From NCBI GenBank assembly GCA_038045405.1, contig JBBSYF010000001.1:1832-65831 (forward strand): 64,000 bases of DNA, read 5' to 3'. The DNA is from Nanobdellota archaeon (GTDB lineage: Archaea; Nanobdellota; Nanobdellia; Pacearchaeales; GW2011-AR1). This document shows positions 14,808-41,486 of the stretch, one piece after another; position 1 is the stretch's first letter; each line of letters begins with the position of its first letter. Position numbers and translations under genes: made by a program. The notes beneath the pieces are model-generated. The model was given only the letters and a program-made list of their open reading frames with translations. It ran no database searches and was not told the DNA's origin.

Positions 14808-15857
14808 ATGAAATCAAGGGAAAGAAGAATAAAGCTAAAAAAGGGTGTTCAAAGAGAGATAATCCTTGAAGCTTCCAAAAGAGAAGGAAATATGAAGAAG
14901 ATGGCAGCAAAAGTAAAAGTCCCATACTCTACAATGAAGAATTACTCGGCAGAATACAGATTCTTACCGGAGAATTTATTTAATAATTTGTTAAAATTGT
15001 CCAACAAATCTACAGAAAATATTGATGCTTCTTACTTAGACTATAAATGGGGGCAACGCTTAGGAGGAAAATTGGGAATAAGAGCACTTGAAAAGAAATA
15101 TCCAGGTAAGATTAAGAAATGGAGAAGTTTAGCCATGAAAAAAGCACTAAGGACTAATCCACGTCTAAAAAAGATAAACTTACCCAAGATTAGTGAAGAG
15201 TTAGCAGAGTTTATAGGAATCTATTTAGGGGATGGTACAATGACAACAAATCAGATTAGAATAGTTGGCGATGCTAGGTACGATGTATTCTACTTCGAAT
15301 ACATATCTAAAATGGTTTATCATTTATTCGGGTTAAAAACTTCTTTAATAAAACATAAGGATACAAACACCTTTCTAGTTGTTGTTTATTCAAAGGCTTT
15401 ATGTGAGTTTATGAATCAAAATTTTAACTTGAAACCAGGAGATAAGATAAGAAATCAAAGCGGTATCCCTCAAAAGATTTTTCGGAATATAAATTTCGCA
15501 AAGGCTTGCTTAAGAGGGCTTATAGACACTGACGGATCGGTTTCAAGAAGGGGGAGAAACGGTAGTCAGTTTTGCATCCAATTCACTTCACACAATAAAA
15601 AACTTTTAGGTCAAGTGAAAAAAATAAACAAAAGACTTAAAATTTTTACATTTGGGGATGAAACAGGAACAGGTACGAATAAGTGGGAGAATATAGTCAA
15701 ATATTTTCAAATTGTTGGTAGCTCAAATCCAAAACACATAGTACGTTTTCTTTTAAGAAAAGAAGGTAGAGTTATTTATAGAGATGAATTGTCTTTTTAC
15801 TTCAAACAGGAAAGGTTTAAAGATTTAAATTTACCATTCAATTTAGGGGGCGTATAA
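14808..15857 (+). CDS. Free-standing double-motif LAGLIDADG homing endonuclease-like protein
   Basis: The two motifs are 'LAEFIGIYLGDGT' and 'CLRGLIDTDGS'. It is a paralog of the ORF at 32148-33059. The ATG at 14808 aligns with the paralog N-terminus, whereas the track start at 14718 is TTG. The last 10 nt overlap tRNA-Val. Confidence 0.8.
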   Translation: MKSRERRIKLKKGVQREIILEASKREGNMKKMAAKVKVPYSTMKNYSAEYRFLPENLFNNLLKLSNKSTENIDASYLDYKWGQRLGGKLGIRALEKKYPGKIKKWRSLAMKKALRTNPRLKKINLPKISEELAEFIGIYLGDGTMTTNQIRIVGDARYDVFYFEYISKMVYHLFGLKTSLIKHKDTNTFLVVVYSKALCEFMNQNFNLKPGDKIRNQSGIPQKIFRNINFAKACLRGLIDTDGSVSRRGRNGSQFCIQFTSHNKKLLGQVKKINKRLKIFTFGDETGTGTNKWENIVKYFQIVGSSNPKHIVRFLLRKEGRVIYRDELSFYFKQERFKDLNLPFNLGGV

Positions 15858-15918
15858 GCTAGCGGTAAACTGTGTCCTTGACGTGGACAATTCCCAAGTT
15901 CAACTCTTGGTACGCCCA
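15848..15918 (+). tRNA. tRNA-Val(GAC)
   Basis: The acceptor is GGGCGTA/TACGCCC and the anticodon arm is TGTCC-TTGACGT-GGACA. The T arm is CCAAG-TTCAACT-CTTGG. The D arm AGCT-AGCGGTA-AACT has one C-A mismatch. Confidence 0.75.
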
Positions 15919-15962
15919 TCCTTGACGTGGACAAAGCGCAGGTTCGATTCCTGTCAGGGCCA
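15919..15962 (+). pseudogene. 3' fragment of a second tRNA-Val(GAC) gene
   Basis: It begins with the 16-nt TCCTTGACGTGGACAA, identical to 15875-15890. It continues with a different T arm (GCAGG-TTCGATT-CCTGT) and acceptor strand (CAGGGCC-A). No matching 5' half (GGCCCTG) was seen nearby. Confidence 0.7.
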
Positions 15963-16004
15963 TTTTTTAACAACCTTTAAAAAGCCATTTTATCTTTTTC
16001 AAAT

Positions 16005-16322
16005 ATGAAGATTCCAAAGACAGTAAATAGGTACTGCCCACATTGTAATAAAAAGACAACTCAAAAAGTTAAGTTAGTCGGAACGGGTTTTAAGCGTGGT
16101 GCCTTAACAAGAGGAAGTATTATCAGAGCAAAGAAGAGAGGACGTGGAACGGGAATAGGAAACAAAGGAAAGTGGGGTTCTAAGCCAGCTATTTCAAAGA
16201 ATAAAAGAAAATCCAAAACAACAAAAAAGACAAACATAATGTACGTCTGTGGTGTTTGTGGAAAAGCAAAATATAGACAGGGAAGAAGAAATAAAAGAAC
16301 AGGGAAGGTAGTACAAGAATAA
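16005..16322 (+). CDS. rpl44e: 50S ribosomal protein L44e
   Basis: It has two CxxC pairs ('CPHCNKKT' and 'CGVCGKA'). The sequence is basic and the length is typical. Confidence 0.9.
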   Translation: MKIPKTVNRYCPHCNKKTTQKVKLVGTGFKRGALTRGSIIRAKKRGRGTGIGNKGKWGSKPAISKNKRKSKTTKKTNIMYVCGVCGKAKYRQGRRNKRTGKVVQE

Positions 16323-16323
16323 A

Positions 16324-16890
16324 ATGGCACAAGCAAAAAAAAGACAAAGATTTTTCGATGTGGACATGCCAATAATAGGCAAAGACACACAACTGTATGA
16401 TTATGAACTAGAAAATCTAAACGGTAAAATAATAAGTTATGACTTAACACGTCTTCTTAGAGGAAAAAGTGTTCTTTTAAAACTTAAAATAAAAATAGAG
16501 GGTGGCAAAGCTATTGCAGAACCTATTGAAATGGTCGTTCTTCCATACTTTATCAGAAGAATGATGAGGAAGGGAACAAATTACGTTGAAGACTCATTTT
16601 CTGCTGAATGCAAAGATGCAAAAGTAAGAATAAAACCTTTCCTTATCACAAGGAAAAAAGTTTCAAGAGCGATAAGAAAGGCTTTGAGAGACAAAGCAAG
16701 AGAAGAGCTAACTAACTATGTAAAAACAAAAGACACTGAAACTCTTTTCAATGAAATTATACAAAGTAAAATTCAGAAAAATTTGTCATTAGCTTTAAAA
16801 AAAGTTTACCCTCTTTCTCTTTGTGAAATAAGAATGTTCAAAGTAGAAAAAAAGTCTGGTGAGGGGAAGTTGACGGTTAAGAAACCGTAG
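16324..16890 (+). CDS. rps3ae: 30S ribosomal protein S3Ae
   Basis: 'FFDVDMP...', 'SYDLTRLL', 'KIKPFLITRKKVSRAIRKALR' and 'KKVYPLSLCEIRMFKV' match the S3Ae/S1e pattern. Confidence 0.85.
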   Translation: MAQAKKRQRFFDVDMPIIGKDTQLYDYELENLNGKIISYDLTRLLRGKSVLLKLKIKIEGGKAIAEPIEMVVLPYFIRRMMRKGTNYVEDSFSAECKDAKVRIKPFLITRKKVSRAIRKALRDKAREELTNYVKTKDTETLFNEIIQSKIQKNLSLALKKVYPLSLCEIRMFKVEKKSGEGKLTVKKP

Positions 16891-16900
16891 GTGTCTTACC

Positions 16901-17392
16901 ATGACAATCGAAAAAACATTAGTTCTTATCAAACCTGATGGAGTTCAGCGTGGTTTGATTGGTGAAATAATAAAAAGATTTGAACAGCGTGGTTTGAAAA
17001 TTGTTGGACTAAAACTCGTTAACCCTGATAAAAGTGCTGCTGAAGAACATTACACTGAAAGCATAGCAACAAAACATGGAAAGCATGTAAGAGACTATCT
17101 TCTGGATTACATAACAGAATCACCAATTATCGCAATAGCCATTCAGGGGGATAATGCAATTAAAGCAGTAAGAAAGATTGTTGGTTCAACCTACCCTGGA
17201 GAGGCAGACATTGGAACAATTCGGGGAGACTTTGCTCACGCAAGTAAAGAGTATGTAAAAGAGACTAACCAAGGTAAAAATCTTGTTCACGCATCAGAAA
17301 ACGAGGAAGATGCAAAGAGAGAACTTTCAATATGGTTCTCTATTGACGATATCCATGATTACACTCGTTCTGATGACAAGCATCTCATATAA
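16901..17392 (+). CDS. ndk: Nucleoside diphosphate kinase
   Basis: 'EKTLVLIKPDGVQRGLIGEIIKRFE', 'GTIRGDF' and 'NLVHASE' (containing the active-site His) are present. Confidence 0.9.
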   Translation: MTIEKTLVLIKPDGVQRGLIGEIIKRFEQRGLKIVGLKLVNPDKSAAEEHYTESIATKHGKHVRDYLLDYITESPIIAIAIQGDNAIKAVRKIVGSTYPGEADIGTIRGDFAHASKEYVKETNQGKNLVHASENEEDAKRELSIWFSIDDIHDYTRSDDKHLI

Positions 17393-17442
17393 GAAATTTT
17401 ATATAACTTTGAATTCTTACTAAGGCATATTCCAAAAAAAAT

Positions 17443-18462
17443 ATGAAAAGAGATTCTACGGACAAGCTGAGAAAGTCTATCAACAAAATAGACGAAGAGA
17501 TGTTAAATCTTTTATCAAAAAGACAACATCTGGCCAAAGAAGTAGGAACACTTAAGAAAAGTTTGAACATCCCCATATTTGATAAAGGAAGAGAGGAAGA
17601 AATTCTAAACAAAATTTCTAAAAGAGCGAAGAAATTAGAGTTAAAAGAAGAGTTTGTCGAAGAAATCTTTAGTGCAATATTCAAAAATTCAAGAGCTTCA
17701 CAACAAAGGCAGTTTAAAAATTTAAGTTGTAAAATAAAAAGGGTTGGACTTATAGGCTTTGGAAGGTTCGGGAAATTAATTGTTAAACATCTTTCTGGCG
17801 ATTTTAAATTTTACGTGTATGACAAAGCGAATAAGAAAGAAGAAATTAGAAAGAGTTATGCTACCCCCTCATCCCTTGAGGAAGTCTGTGAAAAAGAAAT
17901 AGTGATACTCGCAGTTCCGATCTCTAGAATGGAACGCACTCTAATAAAAATTAAGAATTTACTGAAAAGAAATGTGCTTGTTGTTGATGTATGTTCTGTA
18001 AAAGAATATCCTGTAAAATTGATGAAGAATATTCTGCCAAAGAATGTTCAAATACTGGCAACACACCCTCTTTTTGGACCAGATACAGCTTCTGATTCTC
18101 TCGAAGGAAGAAAAATTGCATTATGCAAGGTTAGAGTTTCAAGCAATTTGCACTCTCATATCAAAAGGTTTCTGGAAAGCAAAGGTTTGTTAGTTATAGA
18201 AACAACTCCAGACAAACATGATAGAGAAATTGCCAAGTCACTTGTTTTGACACACCTTATAGGAAGGGCTTTGATTGACATGAAAGCTTCTAACGTCAAT
18301 ATAGACACAAGAGGTTACAGGGATTTAATGAGAATACTTAACACGGTAAAAAATGACGTATGGCAACTTTTTGAAGATATGAATCACTATAACAAGTATT
18401 CAAAAAAAGTAAGAGGAAAGTTTGTTAAATCGATGAGTAGAATAAACAGAAAACTAAACTAA
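17443..18462 (+). CDS. Bifunctional chorismate mutase / prephenate dehydrogenase-like protein
   Basis: An N-terminal AroQ-type helix ('LRKSINKIDEEMLNLLSKRQHLAKEVG') is followed by a Rossmann motif ('VGLIGFGRFGKLI') and 'THPLFGP'. Confidence 0.75.
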   Translation: MKRDSTDKLRKSINKIDEEMLNLLSKRQHLAKEVGTLKKSLNIPIFDKGREEEILNKISKRAKKLELKEEFVEEIFSAIFKNSRASQQRQFKNLSCKIKRVGLIGFGRFGKLIVKHLSGDFKFYVYDKANKKEEIRKSYATPSSLEEVCEKEIVILAVPISRMERTLIKIKNLLKRNVLVVDVCSVKEYPVKLMKNILPKNVQILATHPLFGPDTASDSLEGRKIALCKVRVSSNLHSHIKRFLESKGLLVIETTPDKHDREIAKSLVLTHLIGRALIDMKASNVNIDTRGYRDLMRILNTVKNDVWQLFEDMNHYNKYSKKVRGKFVKSMSRINRKLN

Positions 18463-18578
18463 AACAAAATTTAAATACCCAAACATTTTGGTTCAAACAT
18501 GATATTTCAGCTACAAAGTTATTTCTGGTACTTTTAGGTAGCTGATGCTTTTAGCTCTAAATTCTTTTTAAATCTAAA

Positions 18579-19655
18579 ATGACTTCAAAAAATAATCACT
18601 CATGTTTAGTAGTAGATCAACGTATTCTTGAATATAAAACTCTAATTAGTCCTTACGATCTGAAAAAAGACTTGCCTCAAACAAGCAAAACAAAAGAAAC
18701 AACTATTTATGGAAGAAAGAGTATAGAAGACATCTTAGACGGGAAGGATTCTAAGATTACAATAATTGTCGGACCCTGTTCAATCCACAGTATTGAATCT
18801 GCTAAAGAGTATGCAACAAGGCTCAAGGAGATATCAGATAAAATCTCTGATAAGTTTTTGGTTGTGATGAGAACTTACTTTGAAAAGCCAAGAACAAGCG
18901 TCGGATGGAAAGGTTTCATCTATGATCCTCATCTTGATGGTTCAAATAACATAAATTGGGGCTTACACCTTTCTCGTGAATTTCTCTTACACAATGCAAG
19001 AATCGGATTACCTTCTGCTACAGAATATTTAGAAACGTTTACTCCGCAGTATAACTCGGATCTCATTTCTTGGTCGGCAATAGGAGCGAGAACAGTTGAA
19101 TCTCCACAGCATAGGCAGTTAGCTTCGGGACTTTCAATGCCAGTAGGGTTCAAGAATAATACAGAAGGGAATGTTAAAGTTGCAGTAAACGCTATGCTGT
19201 CTGCAAGAGAAGAGCACTCGTTTTTAGGAATAAATGAGCAAGGAACTCCGTGTGTTGTAATTACTTCTGGAAATCCATACACCCATATTGTCCTTAGAGG
19301 AAGCGAAACAAAAACAAATTACGACTATGAAAATGTTCGTGAAGCACAAAGTCAGCTTGAAGCTCACAAGCTTTCTCCAAAAATTATGATAGACTGTAAT
19401 CATGGAAACTCTAGCAAAGATTACAGAAATCAAGCAAGAGTCTTTGAAGATATACTCAACCAAATCAAAGAAGGAAATAAAAACATAATAGGAGTAATGA
19501 TAGAGTCTAACTTAAATCCGGGAAATCAGCAAATACCTCATAATCTCAACGGTTTTGATGCGAAAAAGTTAGCGTACGGAGTTTCAGTAACGGATTCATG
19601 TCTTGGATGGGAAGAGACTGAGGCTCTTCTGTTAAATGCCCACAGAAGTCTTTGA
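18579..19655 (+). CDS. 3-deoxy-7-phosphoheptulonate (DAHP) synthase, class I (AroG/F/H-like)
   Basis: 'IIVGPCSIH', 'MRTYFEKPRTSVGWKG', 'SWSAIGARTVESPQHRQLASG' and 'KIMIDCNHGNS' match the bacterial class I-alpha pattern. Confidence 0.85.
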   Translation: MTSKNNHSCLVVDQRILEYKTLISPYDLKKDLPQTSKTKETTIYGRKSIEDILDGKDSKITIIVGPCSIHSIESAKEYATRLKEISDKISDKFLVVMRTYFEKPRTSVGWKGFIYDPHLDGSNNINWGLHLSREFLLHNARIGLPSATEYLETFTPQYNSDLISWSAIGARTVESPQHRQLASGLSMPVGFKNNTEGNVKVAVNAMLSAREEHSFLGINEQGTPCVVITSGNPYTHIVLRGSETKTNYDYENVREAQSQLEAHKLSPKIMIDCNHGNSSKDYRNQARVFEDILNQIKEGNKNIIGVMIESNLNPGNQQIPHNLNGFDAKKLAYGVSVTDSCLGWEETEALLLNAHRSL

Positions 19656-19744
19656 AATGAGTCATTTACAAAACCTGAATTGAAAAGATTGGTTCAGGCA
19701 AATAAGAAATCTTTTAAACTGCTTATTCCCTTAGTTTTTCGTAA

Positions 19745-19816
19745 GCCTCGTTAGCTCAGGGGTAGAGCGGCAGTTTTGTAAACTGTAGGTCGGGGGTTCA
19801 AATCCCTCACGAGGCT
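19745..19816 (+). tRNA. tRNA-Thr(UGU)
   Basis: The acceptor is GCCTCGT/ACGAGGC and the D arm is GCTC-AGGGGTAG-AGC. The anticodon loop is TTTGTAA. The T arm is GGGGG-TTCAAAT-CCCTC. Confidence 0.9.
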
Positions 19817-19985
19817 TTGAATAGAGTGAAAAGACGCGTGTAGAAAAATTTCCTATTTTTACTCACGAGGCTTTTGAATGAAATGAAAAAGCAAGTAGAC
19901 GAAATTTATTTCAGTCACGAGGCTTTTGAGCAAAGCGAAAAAGTTCGTTGGAGAAATTCATTTCAACTCAGAGGCTTTTGAACTC
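19807..19985 (+). repeat. Tandem array (about 3.3 units of 52-56 bp) seeded in the 3' end of tRNA-Thr
   Basis: The head TCACGAGGCTTT(T)GA occurs at 19807, 19863 and 19915, with a variant TCAGAGGCTTTTGA at 19968. The unit bodies are related but diverged (..GAAAAAG....GT.GA.GAAATT.ATTTC..). Confidence 0.8.
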
Positions 19986-19987
19986 AA

Positions 19988-20461
19988 TCAAAAATCTTCT
20001 AAGATTCTTTCAAGTCTTTTCTTACCGCTTACTACAACATCTTTAGCAACATAAGCAGCATTAGCAGCAACAGCAATTAATCCAACAGCGCCAATAGCTT
20101 TCTTAGTTTTCTGAGCATAACTCATACGGAAAACTCCTTGAGCAAGATAGAATCCTTGATATCCCATAAATGCATTAGTTGCAGTTTCACCAAACTTGTC
20201 TTCAAAAAAGTAAGCAAAAGCAGCTTGGCTTAAAGCAGGAATGATAGTACAGATAACTGCATGCCCTATTGTCAAATCTTTCTCTTTCCACCCAATCCCT
20301 TCGGCAAGTCTCTTTTGGTACCTTCTCATTAACGCTCCACCTATTTCAAGAACATAAATGAAGTGGGCAATTTTTTTTGTTTTTTCCCAAGAAGAAGTTT
20401 CTGGGAGCTCATTAAATTCCGTGATTATTCCATCAACTTTAGTTTCGAGGTCATCTGTCAT
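19988..20461 (-). CDS. Hypothetical protein
   Basis: The ORF is 157 aa and partly hydrophobic. No recognisable motif was found. Confidence 0.3.
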   Translation of the reverse strand: MTDDLETKVDGIITEFNELPETSSWEKTKKIAHFIYVLEIGGALMRRYQKRLAEGIGWKEKDLTIGHAVICTIIPALSQAAFAYFFEDKFGETATNAFMGYQGFYLAQGVFRMSYAQKTKKAIGAVGLIAVAANAAYVAKDVVVSGKKRLERILEDF

Positions 20462-26433: not shown

Positions 26434-29409
26434 ATGCTTGAAAAACTTGGAGAGGTTCTAAGAAAAGCAACAGATAAGGTAGCAAATGCTATATTCCTTG
26501 ACAAAAACCTCGTTGATTCTATAGTAAAAGACCTTCAACGTGCTCTTATAGAAGCAGACGTTAACGTTGCTCTAGTAAAAGATATTTCAGACCAAATTCG
26601 CAAGGCTGCAATGGATGAAAGAATTAATGGTTTGGAAAAGAAAGAGCATATGATTAAACTCCTTCATGACAGGCTTACAGAAATACTAGGAGAATACAAG
26701 CCATTAACATTGGCTGGTTCCCATGAGCAAAATAGGATAATGTTCTTGGGTTTGTACGGGGCAGGAAAATGTGTTCACCCAGATAGCAATGTTCAGTTAG
26801 CCAACGGAGAGATAATTAGAATTGAAGAACTTTATGAGAGATATGCAAAAAACTTCGAAGAAGAAAGTCTGGAGGATGGTAAAATAATTGAGATATCAAA
26901 CTCGAATCTTTTTGTGCCCTCTTTTAATCCCCTTACTGCAAAAATAGAAAATAAAAGAGCAACCCATTTATGGAAGCTAAACAAAAAAGATTTAGTAGAA
27001 ATTAAAGCAGAAAACGGTAATGATTTCTCGATTAAAGTAACCCCTGAACATCCTTTCTTTGCATTAAAAAATGGACAAATAAATAAGATTAGGGCAGATA
27101 ACTTAACAGAAAACGATTATATCGCAATTCCAAGAGAAATAGACATAAGAGGAAATCCGATAGATCTATCTAAAAGGATAAAGAACTTTAATCTGTCGGG
27201 AGTAAACGACAGAAGAAAAAAGCCGATTAATTTCCCTTCTTTTCTTAATCCCGAATTAGCAGAGTTTATCGGATATGTAATGGGAGATGGACACATAGGA
27301 AGCAGATATGTAGAAATTGTTACAGAGGACATGGAGATTATAGATAGAGTAATTTATCTCTCAAAAAATTTATTCGGTTTGAATGTCCTACCAAAAAGGG
27401 ATTTGAGAACAAAGAATATGGTTAAGCTGATAGTCATGTCCTCAACATTGGTGAAAATACTTTCTATTTTTGGCTTAAAACCAGGGAAAAAGGGTAAACA
27501 ATTAAAGATTTCAGATGAAATCTTAAGGTCAGATAAAGAAGTGATAAGGAGTTTTATAAGAGCATATTTTGACTGTGATTCTTATGCCGCAAAAAATAGA
27601 AGATCAATAGAACTTACGTCAGAAAGCAATATCCTGATTAAACAAATGAGTTTATTATTAAACAGGTTTAATATTGCCTCTACAACATCAAAAAAATTGA
27701 TTAATAGTGTTCCTTATTGGAGACTGATTATTAAGTCAAAATCAGCAGAATTATATTCTGATAGAATAGGGTATCTCATAGAAAGAAAACAAAAGATCAT
27801 AGACAGCTACAAGTTAATTGGGATAAATCAAGGGTGCGGAGATCAGGAAATGATTCCTCTGGGAAAAATTCTAAAAGAGATAAGGGAACAATTAGGATTT
27901 TCAATAGGAGAAATACAAGCAAATGCCGTCTTTAGTTATGGGGGGTACGAAGAAAAAGGTTTTATATCTAGAGAACACTTAAAAAAATTAATAAGTTATT
28001 ATAGAGGCAGAAAAGGGAGATTTTTCCAAATTCTTGATTCTATTTCAAGAAAAGAAAATATTTATGAAAAATATTCTAAAGAGGTAATAAATGGTTTGAC
28101 CCACTTCTTGGAAAATCAAGGTGTAATACACAAAGAAAGAGGAAATGTAACTTTAACAGAAAGTGGATTAGAATCACTCCAATCAATAAAAACTAATAAT
28201 TTAGTTGAAATATTAAGTAATCTTGAGCTTCTTTCAGAATCTGATGTTTTTTGGGTTTCAATTAAAGAAGTAAACAAAATAACAAACGAAAGGGGGGTAG
28301 TTTATGATTTAACAGTAGAAGATAATCATAGTTTCATAGCAGAGGGGTTTATAGTCCACAACACAACAACGATTGCAAAACTAGGGAATTATTTTGCAAA
28401 GCGTGGAAACAGAGTTGTTCTTGTTGGTCTTGATGTTCATCGTCCCGCGGCTGCAGAACAATTGAAACAGATGGCAGACAAAAACAAAATTCCATGTATT
28501 GTTGATTTAGAAGAAAAAAATCCAATTAAGATACTTAAAAAATACAAAAAAGAATTGAATGAATATGACGTTGTTCTTCTCGACACTGCGGGAAGACATT
28601 CTTTAGACAAAGATTTGATAAAAGAAATAAAATCAATCTCCGATGAGGCAAAGCCAACAGAAACAATTCTTGTAATGCCTGCTGATATAGGCCAAGCAGC
28701 AAAAAAACAGGCAAAAGAATTTCAAGAGGCAGTTAAGATTTCCGGTGTGATTATTACAAGAATGGACTCTACTGCTAAAGGGGGCGGCTCTTTGACAGCA
28801 TGTGCAGAAACAAAGGCACCAGTGTACTTTATTACAACAGGAGAAAAAATAAACGATATCGAAGAGTTCAATCCTAAATCTTTCCTTTCAAGATTGTTAG
28901 GTATGGGTGACCTTGAAGCATTGATGGAAAAAGTCCGTTCTGTAACCGGAGAAGATAAGCAGAAACAAATGCAAAAAAAGATGGAAGAGGGAAAGATATC
29001 CCTTGAAGACGTTATAGAACAAGTCAAATCAATGAATTCTCTTGGGGGTTTTGAAAAAATAAAGTCTATGATTCCCGGCTTTTCTTCAGCAAAAATTCCT
29101 GAAGGAACTCTTGAAAACCAAGAAGCAAAAGTTGCAAAATGGGAACATATAATAAAATCAATGACAAAAGAAGAGCGAGAAAATCCGGAACTTCTTGAAA
29201 AACAAACTCAAAGAATAGGGCGTGTTGCACAGGGTGCGGGAGTTAACAACAGCGATGTTCGTGCTCTTCTAAAACAGTACAAAATGTTAAATGAAATGAT
29301 AAAGTCAGGTATGGGCTCTGGAGGTATGGACATGTCTCAAGGAATGAGCCAAAAACAAATGCAAAAATTTGCAAAGAAATTTGGTAAGATGAAAAAGATG
29401 AGGTTTTAA
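26434..29409 (+). CDS. srp54: Signal recognition particle protein SRP54, interrupted by an intein
   Basis: The exteins carry 'GLYGAGK|TTTIAKL', 'DTAGR', 'TRMDSTAKGG' and a Met-rich M domain. The ORF is 991 aa in total, of which 460 aa is extein. Confidence 0.9.
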   Translation: MLEKLGEVLRKATDKVANAIFLDKNLVDSIVKDLQRALIEADVNVALVKDISDQIRKAAMDERINGLEKKEHMIKLLHDRLTEILGEYKPLTLAGSHEQNRIMFLGLYGAGKCVHPDSNVQLANGEIIRIEELYERYAKNFEEESLEDGKIIEISNSNLFVPSFNPLTAKIENKRATHLWKLNKKDLVEIKAENGNDFSIKVTPEHPFFALKNGQINKIRADNLTENDYIAIPREIDIRGNPIDLSKRIKNFNLSGVNDRRKKPINFPSFLNPELAEFIGYVMGDGHIGSRYVEIVTEDMEIIDRVIYLSKNLFGLNVLPKRDLRTKNMVKLIVMSSTLVKILSIFGLKPGKKGKQLKISDEILRSDKEVIRSFIRAYFDCDSYAAKNRRSIELTSESNILIKQMSLLLNRFNIASTTSKKLINSVPYWRLIIKSKSAELYSDRIGYLIERKQKIIDSYKLIGINQGCGDQEMIPLGKILKEIREQLGFSIGEIQANAVFSYGGYEEKGFISREHLKKLISYYRGRKGRFFQILDSISRKENIYEKYSKEVINGLTHFLENQGVIHKERGNVTLTESGLESLQSIKTNNLVEILSNLELLSESDVFWVSIKEVNKITNERGVVYDLTVEDNHSFIAEGFIVHNTTTIAKLGNYFAKRGNRVVLVGLDVHRPAAAEQLKQMADKNKIPCIVDLEEKNPIKILKKYKKELNEYDVVLLDTAGRHSLDKDLIKEIKSISDEAKPTETILVMPADIGQAAKKQAKEFQEAVKISGVIITRMDSTAKGGGSLTACAETKAPVYFITTGEKINDIEEFNPKSFLSRLLGMGDLEALMEKVRSVTGEDKQKQMQKKMEEGKISLEDVIEQVKSMNSLGGFEKIKSMIPGFSSAKIPEGTLENQEAKVAKWEHIIKSMTKEERENPELLEKQTQRIGRVAQGAGVNNSDVRALLKQYKMLNEMIKSGMGSGGMDMSQGMSQKQMQKFAKKFGKMKKMRF
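26770..28362 (+). mobile_element. Intein (531 aa) with a LAGLIDADG endonuclease domain, inserted in the SRP54 P-loop
   Basis: It begins with Cys ('CVHPD') and has a block B 'TPEHPF'. The LAGLIDADG motifs are 'LAEFIGYVMGDGHI' and 'IRAYFDCDSY'. It ends '..GFIVHN' and is followed by Thr at +1. Confidence 0.85.
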
Positions 29410-32089: not shown

Positions 32090-32162
32090 TAGCCCCACTC
32101 GGATTCGAACCGAGGTTTCAGCCTTCAAAGGGCCGCGAACTTGACCACTATTCTATGGGGCT
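32090..32162 (-). tRNA. tRNA-Gln(UUG)
   Basis: Read on the minus strand, the acceptor is AGCCCCA/TGGGGCT and the D arm is GAAT-AGTGGTCAA-GTTC. The anticodon arm is CGGCC-CTTTGAA-GGCTG. The T arm is CTCGG-TTCGAAT-CCGAG. Confidence 0.88.
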
Positions 32163-33059
32163 TTGGAGATTCCAAATCTTAACTTTGTTCAGATGCCTCG
32201 AATTTTTGAAACCAACTTCATTTAAAAATTTTCTCAATTCCGATTTTTTAGTGATTACTATGTCTTTTCCTTTAGTTATCTCTGAAACACCTATTCCTAG
32301 AGATAACAACCCTTTCCTTACATCTTTTAGTAAGGTATTGTTATAATTAGTAAAACAAATTTGATGAGAATTTTGATTTGTTAATTTGTAAACTGAACCG
32401 TCCGTATCAAATAGTCCTCTAAGACATGCCTTGAGATAAGAGTCTTTTTCTTTAATCCAAGAGGGAATTGTAACCTGATTTTTTATTTTGTTACCATGAT
32501 TTAGCCCATTAGAAATAAAAAAGTTTACCAATTGCTTGCTAGAAACCACTATATGCCTTCCATTGCTATCTTTAGGTAATTTTTCTTTGGGTTTTACGCC
32601 GAATAATTCTTCAAATAAAATTGAAATATAATTTAGGTGATATTCCTTGTCTAAATTCTTGTCACCTGCGATGTTAACTTGATAAACACCAATCTTCTTT
32701 CCTTTTTTGTAATAATTTATATTTCCATCTCCCAAGATAATGCCTATTAATTCAGCAAGCTTCTCGCTTCGTTCAGGTGTTCTTATTTTTATGGTAGACC
32801 CTAGAGAGTTAAGCCCTCCTTTAGATTGTCCCCAGAAAGTGTCTAGCTTATTTATAATGAATCTGTCAAAATTTCTATTGGTGATGGTGCTTAATTTAGA
32901 GTATAATTCTTCAGAAATTAATCTTCTCTCATTCTTCAAATCTCGATTTAAATAATCAGCCCCCATCCCAATTTTTTTAGCTAACTCTTTCCATGTTGAA
33001 TCACCTTTCGCTAATAAGATTAATTCTTTTTGCTTTCCTTTCTGCAGCTTTATTTTCAC
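32148..33059 (-). CDS. Free-standing double-motif LAGLIDADG homing endonuclease-like protein
   Basis: The motifs are 'LAELIGIILGDGN' and 'CLRGLFDTDGS'. It is a paralog of the gene at 14808-15857 and uses a GTG start. Its last 15 nt overlap the 5' end of tRNA-Gln. Confidence 0.8.
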   Translation of the reverse strand: MKIKLQKGKQKELILLAKGDSTWKELAKKIGMGADYLNRDLKNERRLISEELYSKLSTITNRNFDRFIINKLDTFWGQSKGGLNSLGSTIKIRTPERSEKLAELIGIILGDGNINYYKKGKKIGVYQVNIAGDKNLDKEYHLNYISILFEELFGVKPKEKLPKDSNGRHIVVSSKQLVNFFISNGLNHGNKIKNQVTIPSWIKEKDSYLKACLRGLFDTDGSVYKLTNQNSHQICFTNYNNTLLKDVRKGLLSLGIGVSEITKGKDIVITKKSELRKFLNEVGFKNSRHLNKVKIWNLQSPIE

Positions 33060-33109
33060 AGATTAAGTAAGAATCAGATATTTATATACTTTTTGACCGC
33101 TACACCACA

Positions 33110-33129
33110 TTCGAATCCTGGCGGGGCTA
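33110..33129 (+). pseudogene. tRNA 3'-end fragment (T loop, T stem and acceptor), inverted relative to tRNA-Gln
   Basis: TTCGAATCCTGGCGGGGCTA compares with the tRNA-Gln 3' end TTCGAATCCGAGTGGGGCTA. There is no 5' partner, and the 5' strand of the T stem is missing. Confidence 0.55.
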
Positions 33130-36175: not shown

Positions 36176-36199
36176 AACCTCTTTTTCTCTTCCTAAAAT

Positions 36200-36916: not shown

Positions 36917-37002
36917 AACCAATTCTCAAATTTTCTTTAATTTTTCTCTTGTCTGAAACCAACAATCACAAAACTTAAAAAGATATTTTTTAGTGAAGTT
37001 AT

Positions 37003-37413: not shown

Positions 37414-37553
37414 AACTCCGTAAATGCAAATCTTGCGAGAGCTACACTTTAAAGGAAGTTTGCGACAAATGTAAAGGAAAAACTTCTGACGCCCATTACA
37501 AATTCATAAAAGTACGTTCTCAAGAAAACCAGGAAACAAAAGTCAAGAATTAA
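37410..37553 (+). CDS. nop10: H/ACA RNP protein Nop10 (47 aa, below the track cutoff)
   Basis: Hand translation gives MKLRKCKSCESYTLKEVCDKCKGKTSDAHYKFIKVRSQENQETKVKN, with a zinc ribbon C..C..YTL...C..C as in Nop10. The ATG overlaps the upstream stop. Confidence 0.7.
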   Translation: MKLRKCKSCESYTLKEVCDKCKGKTSDAHYKFIKVRSQENQETKVKN

Positions 37554-37616
37554 TCCAAACTAACTATTAATTTTCAACAGGTTATTTCATTAACTTTTTA
37601 TCTTTGCCTTGTGTTA

Positions 37617-38222
37617 CTATGCCAATTCTTTCTGCCCTATCTCTTCCTTCACAATTTCCATATCTTTTTCCCACAAACCAATAAGACTTCTGTTGTAAAT
37701 AATCGCCGCAGGATGAAATAAAGGTATGAGCTTTATTTTAACTCCATGAAAGTCCATTATTCTTATTTTCCCATGAACTTGTGTTATTCCGGGCATTTTG
37801 TCCATCCTTTCAACCTCGCCATCAGAAAGAAAGAACTTAGTAGAATAATTTCCCAAAGAACAAACCACCTTTGGCTTTATTTCCTTTATTTGTTCAATCA
37901 ACCAAGGCGTATGGGCCTTTATTTCTTCTGGGCTCGGACCCCTATTCTCTGGCGGGCGATATTTTAGTATATTAGTGATATACACGTCATTTAGAGCCAA
38001 CCCTACTTTAGAAAGCAAAATATCAAGGTTTTTCCCTGCTGCACCAACAAAAGGCTTGCCTTGTTCGTCCTCATTGCGTCCTGCTGCTTCACCAACAAAC
38101 ATGATTTCAGCTTCAGCATTCCCTTTTCCAAAAACAAGGTTGAGAGCACCCTCTTTTAAGGGAAGGTTTGCTTTCCTGCAATCCTCTTCAAGTTTGTCAA
38201 GGATTTCCTTCTTACTTAGCAT
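37617..38222 (-). CDS. udg: Uracil-DNA glycosylase, family 4
   Basis: 'IMFVGEAAGRNEDEQGKPFVGAAGKNLD' and 'HPAA' are present. Confidence 0.85.
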   Translation of the reverse strand: MLSKKEILDKLEEDCRKANLPLKEGALNLVFGKGNAEAEIMFVGEAAGRNEDEQGKPFVGAAGKNLDILLSKVGLALNDVYITNILKYRPPENRGPSPEEIKAHTPWLIEQIKEIKPKVVCSLGNYSTKFFLSDGEVERMDKMPGITQVHGKIRIMDFHGVKIKLIPLFHPAAIIYNRSLIGLWEKDMEIVKEEIGQKELA

Positions 38223-38415
38223 TTTTAGTCAACATTTTTAGCATGTTTATGTATTCTGGCTCAATTAGATTTAGAAGAAAAGATTATTTTTAAGAATTTG
38301 GATTCAAATTACTCCCCCATCAATAAAAAATTTTAATAGTAAAAGCACTATGTAAGCTTAAATTAAATTGATTTTACCAAATTAAAAGGTTCAAATCAAT
38401 CTTAAAAATCTAATC

Positions 38416-40005
38416 CTACTTCTTCCTTACTACAGCCCAAATCAACAATGCAAGAACAACAACCCCTATAACAACCCAAAGCCATGTAAGATTACTACTA
38501 CCGGCATTTCCAGTTGTTCCATCGCTGCCAGTACCTGCATTATCACTTGTAGCAACATTCTCTGATATTGCGAAGTAACTAAAGGAGCTTACCTCAGCAT
38601 CATAGTAATATGAAGTACTGTCTTCAGATGAAAGAGTTGTTGAAAGTTCATTCCATTTCTTTCCAGTTTCATCAAACTTGGAAACAATAACCTTGTTCTT
38701 ATCAGAGACTTTTGATTTCTCAACTTTGAATTGAACTTTTGCAGTAGCCAACTTGTCTGCAAGATTCTGAGTACTTATTTGAACATACTGATAAACTGTT
38801 CCAGTCTTTGCAACTGAAACTGCAGCAGGTTTAGTGTCATACTTTGTTACAGTAACCTGAACGTTTTGCGCAGGGTTATTTACTGTTATTTCTATTTGTT
38901 TCACTCCAGTTGTAGCATCTGCGAATTTCACAACAGAAGCTACTCCAGGTTTTATTTCAGAAACAGTGTTAGTAACTGGTTTTGGTGTAGTTGATGCTCC
39001 ACCACCGCCAGCACCACCGCCACACGCGTTTGTAGAGAATGTTTTTGTTGCAGAACCAGTGTTTCCTGCGACATCAGTACAAGTAACAACATAAGTATAG
39101 GCATTTGCACAACTTAATCCAGATTCTGTCAAGCTCGTTGTTCCTGAAACAGTTGCTCCAGATCTATCGACTGTGCAAGAACTTGTTGCAGTATAAGTAT
39201 CTGTTAATCCTATATTAAGTGTTAATGAACTTTTATCAGAACTTGCCAAAGAAAGTTCAACTTGGGGTCCTGTTCCGTCAATGAAGACTGCTTGTGTAGC
39301 ATTTACTCCAATAAGATTTGCATTCCAATATGTTGTATTTCTACCCGCATATATGTTAATTGTCTGGTTTGCTTCTGCAATGCCCTTCAAAGATAATGTA
39401 GTTGTATTACATGTTCCAACAGTATTATCGGCATTGGGAGTCACAGAAAGGGTTTGATTTGTTCCATTAACATTGACCATACAAACAGTTCCTCGAGTAA
39501 TGTTAATATCAGCAACCGAAATATTTATTGTAAGATTAGTATTTGGGAGTTTTAGTGTCCCATTGACATATCCTACTGAAATTATCGTTGGTGCTGTATT
39601 GTCTATTACAATTCCGGTCGCATTTGTTGAATTTAAAGCAGCAACTCCTGCTGCTGTTGTATTTACTGCTGTTATATTAAATATAGAAGAAGAAACATTT
39701 GCATTTAATGCTGAAGTGCTAAATGCACAGGTAACATTACCATTCGTGGCAATAGAAGTATTACCACATAATGTTGCCCAGTCACCTAATGTTCCATTCC
39801 ACCATTTAACAGTAAAGTTATAAGCACCAGTAATATTCGTTACATTCGCAATAACAGTGAATGTTCCAGTTATATTAGCACTTGCCACAGGGTTCAGTAT
39901 AGTAAAATTAGTTACCTCAGCACTCACAAAACTCGTTGAAACTAAAATAATTGCGAATAAGAACAAAATTCCCAGAACATTAAAATTTTTATTTCTCATC
40001 TTCAT
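38416..40005 (-). CDS. Surface (S-layer-like) glycoprotein with a PGF-pre-PGF-like domain and a C-terminal TM anchor
   Basis: It has a signal peptide and very many N-x-S/T sequons. An Ig/HYR-like segment 'VVTCTDVAGNTGS' and the motif 'FSYFAISE' are present. The C-terminal helix 'LWVVIGVVVLALLIWAVV' is followed by RKK. Confidence 0.65.
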   Translation of the reverse strand: MKMRNKNFNVLGILFLFAIILVSTSFVSAEVTNFTILNPVASANITGTFTVIANVTNITGAYNFTVKWWNGTLGDWATLCGNTSIATNGNVTCAFSTSALNANVSSSIFNITAVNTTAAGVAALNSTNATGIVIDNTAPTIISVGYVNGTLKLPNTNLTINISVADINITRGTVCMVNVNGTNQTLSVTPNADNTVGTCNTTTLSLKGIAEANQTINIYAGRNTTYWNANLIGVNATQAVFIDGTGPQVELSLASSDKSSLTLNIGLTDTYTATSSCTVDRSGATVSGTTSLTESGLSCANAYTYVVTCTDVAGNTGSATKTFSTNACGGGAGGGGASTTPKPVTNTVSEIKPGVASVVKFADATTGVKQIEITVNNPAQNVQVTVTKYDTKPAAVSVAKTGTVYQYVQISTQNLADKLATAKVQFKVEKSKVSDKNKVIVSKFDETGKKWNELSTTLSSEDSTSYYYDAEVSSFSYFAISENVATSDNAGTGSDGTTGNAGSSNLTWLWVVIGVVVLALLIWAVVRKK

Positions 40006-40157
40006 CCTCTTTACTGTTTATCTTAATTTCATAACCTTTATAAATATTTCTTTTGGGAAAAGTTTTGGGGAAATTTAAATCTGCTTTTAATTACCTTATT
40101 TTTATTCTGCGAGGACAAGAAATATATAGACAGCATTTGTTTATTTAAAAATAAAAA

Positions 40158-40229
40158 GCCCTCATAGTTAAACGGATATAATTTTTCCTTGCGGAGGAAA
40201 AGTTCGAGGTTCGATTCCTCGTGGGGGCA
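40158..40229 (+). tRNA. tRNA-Arg(GCG)
   Basis: The acceptor is GCCCTCA/TGGGGGC (one G-U pair). The anticodon arm is TTTCC-TTGCGGA-GGAAA. The T arm is CGAGG-TTCGATT-CCTCG. Confidence 0.88.
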
Positions 40230-40320
40230 TTTGCATAGCAAATGAACACTGACGAAATTTTCCAATTTCAGTCTGTGGTGGCGTTAATCCTCAAGCTTCA
40301 AAAAATGAAGCAACAGAAGA

Positions 40321-40366
40321 TTTATAAACATTCATTAATAATGAATAATTATTCACTTTAAGTGAA
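40321..40366 (+). promoter_or_regulatory. TATA box plus two palindromes upstream of the MNT/HEPN pair
   Basis: The TATA-like tttataaac lies at 40321-40329. Palindromes are ATTCATTA-A-TAATGAAT (40330-40346) and TTCACTT-T-AAGTGAA (40352-40366). The ATG is at 40376. Confidence 0.45.
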
Positions 40367-40375
40367 AACTATAAG

Positions 40376-40960
40376 ATGATACCTAAAAACACGAAGAAGA
40401 TAATACTCTACTTACTGAGAAATCTGGAACTGGTTAATATTAATCAGATTTCTAAGAAGTTAAGTATAAGTGTAGGCAGTGCATTTAAAATTTTAAAAGA
40501 TTTGGGGAAGGATAATCTCGTCTTATCTTCTAACTTAGGAAATGCTAAGTTCTATCGAATTAATTTAAACAATGAAGAAACAATGAGATGGTGTGAAATT
40601 CTTCTGTCGGAAGAAAGAAGAAACCTAAAGGGATACCCTAAAGTCTATGCAGAAGAAATACAAAAATTTGAACAAGCAGAGTTAATTATTTTATTTGGCT
40701 CTGTTCTGAGCAACAAAGATTTTAATGATGTAGATGTTTTGTTTATAACAAGCAAACCTAAAGAAATTACAAAATTTTGTTTAAATCTATCGAAGATAAG
40801 AACAAAACCTGTTGTTCCATTGATTCTAAAGAAAGAAGACTTAATTAATGAAATAAAAAACAAGAAAGAAGTAGTTTTAGATATAATCAAAACAGGGATT
40901 ATATTAAAGGGTGAATCAGCGTTATTAAAGGTGCTAAAAGATGTCAAACAGCAAAGATAG
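40376..40960 (+). CDS. wHTH-fused minimal nucleotidyltransferase (MNT, antitoxin-like)
   Basis: An N-terminal wHTH ('INQISKKLSISVGSAFKILKDL') is followed by the NTase motif 'LFGSVLSNKDFNDVDVLF'. Confidence 0.7.
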   Translation: MIPKNTKKIILYLLRNLELVNINQISKKLSISVGSAFKILKDLGKDNLVLSSNLGNAKFYRINLNNEETMRWCEILLSEERRNLKGYPKVYAEEIQKFEQAELIILFGSVLSNKDFNDVDVLFITSKPKEITKFCLNLSKIRTKPVVPLILKKEDLINEIKNKKEVVLDIIKTGIILKGESALLKVLKDVKQQR

Positions 40961-41417
40961 ATTAAGTTGGTGTCTTGAAAATGAAAAGAGAATGAGAAAG
41001 ATTAAGCCAAATGATAGTCTTTCTAAAGAACATATAGGGAAGGCAAAACATAACTTGAAAGCATCCGATTATAACATTCAAGGACACTTTGATGACTGGG
41101 CTGTTTCTCAATCTTATTATGCAATGTATCATGCGCTTTTAGCAATTCTGTTTAAGAAAGGTTTTGAATCAAAAAATCACGAATGCACAATAAGCACAGT
41201 AGAATTTTTAATTGAAACTAAAGAGATTAATTTGGATATGGAAGATTTATCTTTTATCAGAACAACTGAACAGATGACTACTAAAGACGCCAAGTCATTA
41301 AGAGAAGAATTTCAATATGGAACAAAAACAGATGTAAACAAAGTTCTACTGACTGAACTCCTACAAAAATCTAAAGTTATTGTTGAGAAAATAGAAGTTA
41401 TATTAAACGAGATGTAG
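40941..41417 (+). CDS. HEPN-domain protein (toxin-like partner of the MNT)
   Basis: 'AKHNLKASDYN', 'DWAVSQSYYAMYHALLAILF' and 'SKNHECT' are present. The gene overlaps the upstream MNT gene by 20 nt. Confidence 0.65.
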   Translation: MSNSKDRLSWCLENEKRMRKIKPNDSLSKEHIGKAKHNLKASDYNIQGHFDDWAVSQSYYAMYHALLAILFKKGFESKNHECTISTVEFLIETKEINLDMEDLSFIRTTEQMTTKDAKSLREEFQYGTKTDVNKVLLTELLQKSKVIVEKIEVILNEM

Positions 41418-41435
41418 ATTAAATCTCAAATAGTA

Positions 41436-41486
41436 GGGGGAAAACGTTGGAGACTTAATCTTTAGGGTTAAGTAATCGTGGGGCAT
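41436..41486 (+). pseudogene. Degenerate copy of the tRNA-Arg 3' half (possible att remnant)
   Basis: GGGGGAAAACGTTGGAG...TCGTGGGGCAT compares with the tRNA GGAGGAAAAGTTCGAGG...TCGTGGGGGCAT. The middle part (T loop) is replaced. Confidence 0.4.

Follow-up and report, generated by a model that had tools for sequence, protein, structure and literature searches.

tRNA genes and partial copies in the window

The window, that is the whole stretch of 64,000 nucleotides analyzed here, comes from a tiny groundwater archaeon of a Pacearchaeota-type (DPANN) genus, with a genome of 567 kb. Using ARAGORN and Rfam, we recovered five tRNA genes, exactly where a preliminary description of this DNA had placed them. 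As presented in Table 1, four of them have partial 3'-end copies, as had been claimed, and no copy was found for tRNA-Leu, which had been called clean. These copies are real, but more than one phenomenon is involved: the Val and Gln loci have the layout of an endonuclease-tRNA replacement, the Arg locus has an att-like tail copy after an inserted toxin-antitoxin pair and the Thr locus has a gene-less array, which argues against a single mechanism.

Table 1. Positions of the tRNA genes, partial copies and associated genes in the window.
Feature	Position	Strand	Basis or remark
tRNA-Leu(UAG)	5100..5183	+	no copies
Old tRNA-Val promoter AACATTATATTTAAATATTT	14700..14719	+	now ahead of the endonuclease gene; matches the G021 upstream sequence
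Decayed 5' half of old tRNA-Val, positions 1 to ~27	14742..14768	+	comparison with G021
Double-motif LAGLIDADG homing-endonuclease gene, Val lineage, free-standing	14808..15857	+	Pfam LAGLIDADG_3, E 1.9e-12
tRNA-Val(GAC) of the putative cassette	15848..15918	+	ARAGORN and Rfam, 53.8 bits
3' part of old tRNA-Val, positions 28-73, 44 nt	15919..15962	+	followed by a T-run (TTTTTT)
tRNA-Thr(UGU)	19744..19817	+	ARAGORN and Rfam, 70.2 bits
Tandem array of gene-less 52-56-nt units	19806..19994	+	Tandem Repeats Finder: period 52, 74-78% matches
tRNA-Gln(UUG) of the putative cassette	32090..32162	-	D- and T-arms differ from the genus type in a comparison with the tRNA-Gln(UUG) genes of 15 relatives
Double-motif LAGLIDADG homing-endonuclease gene, Gln lineage, free-standing	32148..33059	-	Pfam LAGLIDADG_3, E 2e-15
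D-arm-like fragment GTGTAGCGGTCAA	33093..33105	-	cassette orientation; direct sequence reading; weak alone
3' end of old tRNA-Gln(UUG), positions 49-73, 25 nt	33105..33129	+	inverted relative to the present gene
tRNA-Arg(GCG)	40158..40229	+	ARAGORN and Rfam, 59.6 bits
MNT-type nucleotidyltransferase and HEPN pair	40376..41417	+	Pfam Polbeta/NTP_transf_2 and HEPN; between the tRNA and the displaced tail
tRNA-Arg tail copy, TCGTGGGG-CA vs TCGTGGGGGCA, 10/11 nt	41476..41485	+	p ~0.004

The tRNA-Val locus

The tRNA-Val gene is preceded by an endonuclease gene whose stop overlaps the tRNA 5' end by 10 nt, and the TATA-like box of this tRNA lies inside the final codons of the endonuclease gene. The endonuclease likely starts at ATG 14808 (the longest frame opens at TTG 14718) and carries the motifs IGIYLGDG and LRGLIDTDG; the PDB matches of its residues 149-277 were V-ATPase chains. 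Orthologues with 48-56% identity were observed ahead of tRNA-Val in G006, G007 and G041, and the tRNA allele GGGCGTA...TACGCCC is shared with G006, G017 and G016.

The 44-nt piece that directly follows the gene had been described as a copy of its 3' end. Its length and position were confirmed, but it belongs to a different tRNA-Val(GAC): after 16 nt identical to the anticodon arm of the gene, it continues with its own T-arm and acceptor end (CAGGGCCA). It is similar to the 3' portion of an intact tRNA-Val that immediately precedes the L44e gene in G023, G014 and G009. This stump is the sole orphan T-arm in the genome and scored higher than all 300 background segments. The other half of the old gene lies upstream of the endonuclease gene. 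Comparison with G021, which has an intact ancestral tRNA-Val, identified the old promoter, and the motif AACATTATATTTAAATATTT also stands ahead of the endonuclease gene in G006, G007 and G041. The 5' stub begins exactly 24 nt past the TATA box, with the same spacing as in G021, and agrees with the ancestral 5' half in 18 of 27 positions when one gap is allowed.

The two Val pieces could be the exons of a working split or intron-containing tRNA-Val, with the endonuclease gene in a 1.15-kb intervening sequence, and the GGTCCCG of the 5' stub still pairs with CAGGGCC at 6 of 7 positions. However, the stub has lost conserved elements, namely G18G19, two D-stem pairs and the entire 5' strand of the anticodon stem; the supposed intron would hold a complete tRNA-Val(GAC), and the stump is down to 17 nt in G017. 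We rejected this candidate as highly improbable. A second reading takes all four copies as ordinary attL/attR scars of integrase-mediated integration, the integrase and most of the cargo having since decayed; integration into tRNA genes is a known source of partial copies in archaea, including copies that were later inverted (PMC9897764, PMC3293823). At Val, however, the T-arm and acceptor end of the stump differ from those of the gene, the stump abuts the gene with no cargo between them, the endonuclease gene is preceded by the old 5' half and both strands of the acceptor stem have been replaced, and an att crossover cannot produce such an arrangement. Neither the Val nor the Gln stump is identical to the 3' segment of its own gene, so these are not direct repeats. 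Moreover, the window holds no recombinase, and the few of the genome are not beside these loci. Overall, integration scars are an improbable explanation for the four copies.

Comparison of the tRNA-Val/L44e site across the genus revealed presence/absence polymorphism together with decayed copies, as in a homing cycle. The orthologous site is empty in G023, G014 and G009, and it holds an intact endonuclease gene with a 44-46-nt stump in the studied genome (G000) and G006. In G007 and G041 the endonuclease gene contains 3-5 stop codons, G041 retaining a 45-nt stump, and in G017 it has been lost, leaving the new tRNA and the 17-nt stump.

The tRNA-Gln locus

A similar organization was observed on the opposite strand at tRNA-Gln, where the endonuclease stop lies 15 nt within the tRNA gene. 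The two endonucleases share 35% identity (E 5e-37) and each has two LAGLIDADG motifs (IGIILGDG and LRGLFDTDG for Gln), every motif with an acidic residue. The Gln enzyme clusters with the G010 endonuclease located ahead of tRNA-Gln(CUG), with a support of 99/96.

We found the 20-nt inverted copy that had been noted here, TTCGAATCCTGGCGGGGCTA, at 33110-33129, 948 nt upstream of tRNA-Gln on the opposite strand; it matches the present gene at 17 of 20 positions and scored above all 300 background segments. The match of the 25-nt stump to the genus-typical CCAGGTTCGAATCCTGGCGGGGCTA is 23/25, and the D-arm-like fragment next to it has AGCGGTCAA in common with the D-arms of tRNA-Gln in the genus. 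The strand of the stump is also the one that carries tRNA-Gln, beside a ParA-like gene, in most relatives. A hairpin directly behind the tRNA-Gln gene was not significant.

Endonuclease-tRNA cassettes in the genus and their proposed origin

We then considered loci holding homologues of these endonucleases, and a tRNA gene on the same strand lies directly downstream in 15 of 20. In the studied genome, five of the eight free-standing LAGLIDADG frames are ahead of a tRNA (Val, Gln, Gly, Ile and Pro); two have no nearby tRNA, which counts against the association. Further cassettes with 3' stumps were found at Gly(CCC) in G009, at Thr(GGU) in G046 (31 nt) and at Arg(GCG) in G018 (24 nt). In the endonuclease tree, sequences cluster by tRNA isotype across genomes and not by genome, with 99-100% support; this clustering fits long vertical descent at one locus equally well as repeated homing. 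Our literature search found no published description of endonuclease-tRNA cassettes.

The homing-endonuclease genes had previously been taken for cargo. Instead, each reads into a complete replacement tRNA and is itself located between the two stumps of the old gene, and they are likely the agent at Val and Gln. We propose that a free-standing LAGLIDADG endonuclease gene and a complete tRNA gene, of the isotype attacked by the endonuclease, move together as a cassette. The cassette would have entered the resident tRNA gene, at Val where the D-stem meets the anticodon stem; the putative target site of the Val endonuclease is deduced from this insertion point only. The new tRNA does not join the old 3' part in homologous register, so this first entry must have been illegitimate. 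After entry, the old promoter and 5' stub would front the endonuclease gene, the promoter hidden in the final codons of that gene would drive the replacement tRNA, and the old 3' part would remain as a dead stump. The replacement allele would escape cutting because it differs from the old allele next to the entry point, on its 5' side. Later, the endonuclease gene would decay and be lost, leaving the new tRNA and the stump. At Gln, a subsequent inversion, an extra step that this history requires, may have placed the stump on the other strand.

Sequences behind tRNA-Arg and tRNA-Thr

A degenerate copy of the 3' half of tRNA-Arg had been reported downstream of the gene. The wider alignment was not significant (p 0.17), and what holds is the tail copy of 10/11 nt: allowing one edit, three instances of the 11-mer are present in 1.13 Mb besides the gene itself, and p is ~0.004 for the 1.6-kb interval. 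This copy closes a 1.25-kb insertion, whose MNT/HEPN cargo includes no recombinase and had no homologue at the Arg locus in the 29 other genomes sampled. The interval is an insertion hotspot across the genus, with a 12/12 copy beside radA flanking 1.29 kb in G020 and a 22-nt copy in G043. The order tRNA, cargo, tail copy and the G020 repeat are what integration scars would leave, and both fit the layout of archaeal integrative elements, in which a full and a partial tRNA copy bracket the insert and inversions can separate their strands (PMC9897764; PMC3293823), as for the partial gene of Caldiarchaeum tRNA-Thr(GGU) (PMC3293823). These elements nevertheless span 1.8-23 kb, encode a recombinase and have a repeat identical to the end of the gene. 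The Val and Gln loci depart from them further, with stumps that differ from the gene and a homing endonuclease as sole enzyme.

Behind tRNA-Thr, we confirmed the three extra tandem copies of the tail that had been described, with a length of 11-12 nt and not 14-15 nt (19862-19873, 12/12; 19915-19925, 11/11; 19967-19977, with one deletion). Tandem Repeats Finder gave 2.3-2.6 copies per overlapping row, and about 3.6 units span 19806-19994. Each unit opens with the final 11-12 nt of the tRNA, followed by TTTGAAT.AA.TGAAAAAG. A homologous array bearing the tail of its own tRNA was observed in the related species G006, and the same unit lies behind tRNA-Leu(AAG) in a third species (G001). Overall, this type of unit is found behind three different isotypes in different genomes. 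In 42 genomes we found three exact occurrences of the 17-mer core of the unit, each no more than 5 nt from the 3' end of a tRNA. The tails stay identical while the spacers fall to 50-60% identity, which points to selection or ongoing conversion and which a pure scar model fails to explain.

Such conservation could mean that selection maintains the Thr-type units, and perhaps also the Arg tail, for a function in the tRNA transcript (as repeated terminators, 3'-processing sites or small RNAs). A T-run follows each tail, the folding of the array is slightly better than that of shuffled sequences (z = -2.0), and the E. coli tRNA-linked repeats, three of which yield processed small RNAs, share this design (PMC8144298). 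We nevertheless regard a transcript function as rather unlikely: a tail copy stands behind tRNA-Thr(UGU) in only 4 of 22 relatives' genes, plus G006, the same unit follows three isotypes, the array has no Rfam match, and the spacers hold no strand complementary to the tail, so that an acceptor-like helix is not possible.

We favor the addition of DNA directly behind the discriminator base, with the tRNA tail repeated at the far end: the 1.25-kb MNT/HEPN module at Arg(GCG) and three 40-nt gene-less units at Thr(UGU). A possible agent is insertion that duplicated the target, with unequal exchange afterwards, or, alternatively, recombination by an enzyme supplied in trans. Taken together, the four partial copies probably record at least two processes operating without an integrase, replacement by endonuclease-tRNA cassettes at Val and Gln and addition of DNA behind the discriminator base at Arg and Thr.

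Tail copies and recombinases genome-wide

To evaluate tail copies beyond the window, we scanned the genome for exact 10-mer copies within 2 kb downstream of each tRNA. Copies were detected for Thr(UGU), Arg(UCG) and His, and for Lys with an N run in between, and the reversed, upstream and 5'-end controls gave 0 copies. In a sample of the genus, tail copies were found at 7 of 102 tRNA genes, compared with 0-1 in controls. The occurrence at Arg(UCG) and His answers the concern that the pattern might be a local coincidence. It is hardly credible that chance matching, or assembly errors in a genome recovered from a metagenome, produced the copies, a reading already largely refuted: the tRNA-Lys duplicate on contig C11 flanks the N run and is probably an artefact, and the extended Arg alignment is not significant, but the Val and Thr architectures recur in independently assembled genomes and the background and positional controls yield 0-1 matches.

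No tyrosine or serine recombinase (PF00589, PF00239) or Y1 transposase was found within the window, in agreement with the earlier claim that it has no integrase. The genome encodes one Xer-like tyrosine recombinase, one resolvase and three Y1 transposases, and these loci are adjacent to none of them; its sole PF00589/PF00239 matches are at C1:99218 and C1:89167. Of the two origins suggested earlier, these results support a mechanism other than an integrase that acts on the tRNA genes of this lineage, and in this DPANN genus mobile DNA probably inserts mainly at tRNA genes.

Relation to known systems

Mobile endonuclease ORFs of fungal mitochondria, as in Allomyces atp6, carry a substitute gene terminus, so that no splicing is needed, and leave a remnant downstream. 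In both cases the endonuclease gene supplies a replacement for the displaced host part; however, atp6 is a protein-coding target of which only the terminus is replaced, whereas here the replacement is an entire tRNA gene, including its promoter. A homing endonuclease that supplies a substitute for the essential gene it destroys would have no need of an intron.

SegB of phage T4, a free-standing homing endonuclease of the GIY-YIG family whose gene lies in the phage tRNA gene cluster, recognizes the T-psi-C stem-loop motif of tRNA genes and drives the co-inheritance of itself and neighboring tRNA genes (PMC2330249). SegB and the present cassettes share a free-standing endonuclease gene among tRNA genes. 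In contrast to this phage system, for which no stumps of an overwritten gene are described, the archaeal cassettes contain LAGLIDADG genes on a cellular chromosome, leave stumps, have each lineage tied to one isotype and have an endonuclease frame that runs into the tRNA.

The tail-bearing units are by design the archaeal counterpart of the E. coli tRNA-linked repeats, unexplained since 1978: in both, a tRNA or rRNA gene is directly followed by one to five short units that each repeat the 3' end of the gene, and most units have no known function (PMC8144298). This layout was found at Thr(UGU), with three extra tails, and at Arg(UCG) on contig C18, with one. The likeness is one of design only: identity at the end of the E. 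coli units extends over 18-19 bp, and the three behind rRNA operons measure about 100 bp or more, compared with tails of 11-12 nt and units of 52 nt in the archaeon.

Archaeal tRNA fragments are routinely read as integrase scars, and two of the four cases here appear to come from a different process. The cassettes offer a concrete route for the breakage and replacement of tRNA genes, with leftover pieces, in small archaeal genomes, and bear on the origin of split and multi-intron tRNA genes. More tentatively, isotype-specific LAGLIDADG lineages might be serial replacers of DPANN tRNA genes, and the units behind Thr, Arg(UCG) and Leu a second, gene-less mobile DNA targeting the tRNA 3' end. If so, tRNA acceptor, D- and T-arm sequences would turn over fast, with a steady supply of 5' and 3' fragments as raw material for split tRNA genes and odd tRNA introns in archaea. 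Annotation is affected as well: stumps may be mistaken for tRNA genes, and the reading frame of the endonuclease extends into the tRNA gene.

Probable replacement of tRNA-Val(GAC) by an endonuclease-tRNA cassette

The genome analyzed here (Nanobdellota archaeon GCA_038045405.1, hereafter G000; 567 kb, 29 contigs, 34% G+C) was compared with related genomes of the same genus (designated by other G numbers). In the window, ARAGORN and Rfam agreed on five tRNA genes: Leu(UAG), Val(GAC), Thr(UGU), Gln(UUG) and Arg(GCG). Immediately 3' of the tRNA-Val discriminator base, we observed TCCTTGACGTGGACAAAGCGCAGGTTCGATTCCTGTCAGGGCCA and then TTTTTT. The first 16 nt of this stump, the leftover 3' part of an old, overwritten tRNA gene, repeat the anticodon arm of the present gene, and its T-arm and acceptor end (CAGGGCC) come from a different tRNA-Val. 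An intact tRNA-Val(GAC) is found directly upstream of the L44e gene in same-genus genomes (e.g., G023, G014 and G009), and the 3' part of the G023 gene (GGCCTTG...CAGGGCCA) closely resembles the G000 stump. The allele GGGCGTA...TACGCCC is present instead in G000, G006 and G017, where 44, 46 and 17 nt of the old gene, respectively, come after it.

Upstream of the new tRNA-Val lies a LAGLIDADG_3 frame, the stop codon of which falls 10 nt into the tRNA gene. Alignment with G021 showed that the old tRNA-Val promoter AACATTATATTTAAATATTT is kept, and GGTCCCGTTGCCTATTGTTCAGAACAG, exactly 24 nt past the old TATA box, matches the old tRNA-Val 5' half at 18 of 27 positions, with G18G19 and the D-stem pairs gone. 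Taken together, the promoter and 5' half upstream and the old 3' part downstream place a 1.15-kb cassette, made of a free-standing endonuclease gene and a complete tRNA, between approximately positions 27 and 28 of the old tRNA-Val. The likely endonuclease start codon is located downstream of the 5' stub, so the old tRNA promoter probably now drives the endonuclease. TATA-like boxes occur 26-33 nt before the new tRNA-Val, within the last codons of the endonuclease gene (G000, G006, G017). A split tRNA was rejected, as a genome search for a 5' partner of the stump recovered nothing but the decayed stub that precedes the endonuclease gene.

Different stages of decay were observed at the Val site. 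The orthologous endonuclease genes of G007 and G041 carry 3-5 stop codons, and G041 retains 45 nt of its own old allele as a stump. In G017 the endonuclease gene is gone apart from approximately 60 nt at its 3' end, and the new tRNA remains together with the 17-nt stump. Since G016 possesses the new allele behind an ordinary promoter, this allele may have been native to a single lineage and acquired there.

Coordinates of the features (window positions, or contig positions in G000, where C1 is JBBSYF010000001.1 and the window spans C1:1832-65831)
Feature	Sequence	Position	Strand
Old tRNA-Val promoter	window	14700-14719	
Likely Val endonuclease start (ATG)	window	14808	
tRNA-Val(GAC)	window	15848-15918	
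52-nt period, Thr(UGU) array	window	19806-19994	
991-aa frame, probably an intein	window	26434-29409	
LAGLIDADG_3 match in this frame	window	~27538-27771	
Gln stump	window	33105-33129	+
Apparent false tRNA-Leu(caa) call	C1	89847-90219	
Apparent tRNA-SeC(tca) miscall	C1	114762-114865	
tRNA-Asp tail copy	C9	16390	-
tRNA-Lys(UUU) duplication, probably an artefact	C11	13604-13833	
Y1 transposase gene	C15	39736-40083	
Region behind tRNA-Arg(UCG)	C18	17549-17680	
Y1 transposase gene	C20	929-1276	
Y1 transposase gene	C20	18447-18794	
Gene cassettes behind tRNA-His	C20	22904-25754	
tRNA-Thr(CGU) tail copy	C24	504	+

A probable cassette with a paralogous endonuclease at tRNA-Gln(UUG)

A minus-strand endonuclease, paralogous to the Val enzyme (35% identity, E 5e-37), ends 15 nt inside tRNA-Gln(UUG), and the D- and T-arms of this tRNA are unlike the genus type. 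On the plus strand, just beyond the endonuclease start, CCACATTCGAATCCTGGCGGGGCTA agrees at 23 of 25 positions with the tRNA-Gln 3' end typical of the genus. Most relatives have tRNA-Gln(UUG) on the plus strand, which is that of the stump, beside a ParA-like gene. The stump therefore marks the old gene, relative to which the cassette is now inverted. A D-arm-like 13-mer adjoins the stump in the orientation of the cassette. A single inversion between acceptor-strand repeats did not reproduce the observed order, and the succession of rearrangements at this locus is one that we infer. A 7-bp hairpin (GGCTATT/AATAGCC) directly 3' of tRNA-Gln was not significant (p 0.98); the 20-nt inverted 3' copy of the preliminary description is located elsewhere.

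Cassettes elsewhere in the genus and comparison with known systems

Further cassettes with stumps were found at Gly(CCC) in G009, Thr(GGU) in G046 (31 nt) and Arg(GCG) in G018 (24 nt), the last stump being similar to the intact G000 Arg gene. A tRNA is located directly downstream on the same strand at 15 of 20 loci with endonuclease homologues, and a tRNA-Thr-like sequence follows at least three more. Five of the eight free-standing LAGLIDADG frames of G000 precede a tRNA (Val, Gln, Gly(UCC), Ile and Pro), one converges on tRNA-Cys and two are without a nearby tRNA. In the endonuclease protein tree, the Val, Gln, Gly(UCC) and Ile isotype groups each unite sequences from different genomes (99-100% support), and the G000 copies are not grouped together.

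Endonuclease ORFs of fungal mitochondria bring a substitute gene end, and by analogy the cassette would work in the same way. It would also resemble T4 SegB, an endonuclease that recognises a motif in tRNA genes and takes adjacent tRNA genes along with it (PMC2330249). In contrast to integrase scars (PMC9897764, PMC3293823), the stump is here not a copy of the present gene. A full-text literature search found no published description of endonuclease-tRNA replacement cassettes in archaea. The whole of G000 encodes one Xer-like tyrosine recombinase, one resolvase and three Y1 transposases (IS200/IS605-type), none of them in the window or beside the copy-bearing tRNA loci, which bears out the earlier statement that the window holds no integrase. 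No TnpB-type match was detected in G000.

The LAGLIDADG_3 domain is also present in a 991-aa window frame, probably an intein, and in four other G000 frames of 868-1238 aa. Two ARAGORN calls were set aside: a tRNA-Leu(caa) with a 280-nt intron does not convincingly match the genuine tRNA-Leu(CAA) and resembles a false call within apparently coding sequence, with a resolvase gene upstream, and a tRNA-SeC(tca) looks like a miscall that reads as an intron-bearing tRNA-Gly(UCC) preceded by an endonuclease gene.

Tail-bearing units behind tRNA-Thr(UGU) and other tRNA genes

Tandem Repeats Finder detected a 52-nt period at tRNA-Thr(UGU). Each unit comprises CTCACGAGGCTT, the tRNA tail (its last nucleotides), then TTTGAAT.AA.TGAAAAAG and a variable part with weak hairpin structure. 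A homologous array in G006 has three units, the tails of which (CTCACAGGCTT) are those of G006's own tRNA; three base pairs distinguish the tRNA-Thr acceptor stems of the two genomes. The exact 17-mer TGAATGAAATGAAAAAG occurs 3 times in 42 genomes, versus approximately 0.02 expected, always no more than 5 nt from the 3' end of a tRNA: Thr (G000, G006) and Leu(AAG) (G001), where a copy of the tRNA-Leu(AAG) tail follows. With two mismatches allowed, the pattern gave mostly noise in this A-rich genome, and only these three exact matches are informative. Behind tRNA-Arg(UCG), on contig C18, we observed one diverged, Thr-related unit of 40 nt and then an exact 11-nt tail copy; past this copy, the hairpin TGACGCGAACTTCCTGTTCGCGGA occurs twice, with what looks like a shortened tail-unit junction between.

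The tails of the units are perfectly kept and their spacers only 50-60% alike; either units were added repeatedly and each took up the local tail, or selection or conversion acts on the tails. In design the units correspond to the tRNA-linked repeats of E. coli (PMC8144298). A C/D-box small RNA was rejected because the units contain no C or D boxes. An nhmmer profile of the Thr and Arg(UCG) units recovered only the training copies in G000. A family of related 70-100-nt insertions (GTGTGAGRAACCC..AGGARGTTCTCATTCAA), distinct from the units of G000 and G006, lies behind tRNA-Thr(UGU) in G004 (locus L034) and G012 (locus L045); after the insertion the tRNA-Thr 3' end is repeated over approximately 14 nt and 20 nt, respectively. 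Behind tRNA-Gln(UUG), G022 (locus L129) has a copy of approximately 21 nt of the 3' end past a 66-nt spacer, 74-79 nt behind the gene, and G003 (locus L138) repeats at least 10 nt of the tail exactly at that offset; both add to the tail-bearing units.

Tail copies across the genome

The genome-wide scan proposed in the preliminary description revealed copies beyond the window, at Arg(UCG) and His. When the last 40 nt of each tRNA were compared with 2 kb on either side, against 300 background segments, only four non-trivial cases equalled or exceeded the top background: Val, Thr, Gln (upstream, opposite strand) and Arg(UCG). Within 2 kb downstream, exact 10-mer copies of the tail were found for Thr(UGU), Arg(UCG), His (two copies) and Lys, and none in the G000 controls (reversed tails, upstream regions, opposite strand, 5' heads). 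The Lys case, in which the 3' part of tRNA-Lys(UUU) is duplicated to either side of a run of N, probably reflects faulty scaffolding or a withheld stretch. In a genus sample biased towards the four studied loci, 7 of 102 tRNA genes had a tail copy within 400 nt, versus 0, 0 and 1 in the controls.

The region behind tRNA-His contains gene cassettes; three paralogues among them resemble low-molecular-weight phosphatase or ArsC-type proteins. Two junctions in this region have approximately 40 identical nt in common (CTAACCCGATGTATGTTCAACTGGTTACTCCTTCCGCCCT), ending in the tRNA-His tail, and the flanking genes are far more diverged; the locus looks like a tRNA-anchored cassette array. Exact 11-12-nt tail copies of tRNA-Asp (contig C10) and tRNA-Thr(CGU) (contig C6) lie near the ends of other contigs, oriented as downstream copies would be if the contigs were neighbours. 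Before the Asp copy stands CTAACCCG, as it does at the His junctions.

The tRNA-Arg(GCG) locus

In several relatives 4-40 nt separate the end of tRNA-Arg(GCG) from the radA stop codon, and in others 0.3-1.3 kb of unrelated DNA. An exact 12-nt copy of the tRNA-Arg tail lies beside radA in G020, 1.29 kb behind the gene, and G043 has a 22-nt tail copy. The extended alignment described earlier as a degenerate copy of the tRNA-Arg 3' half was not significant. In G000, the only sampled genome with this MNT/HEPN pair at the locus, the pair follows the tRNA and precedes TCGTGGGG-CA, a near-match that is rare in the genome (p ~0.004 for the interval). In several relatives the radA frame reaches 825-852 aa, which suggests an intein there.
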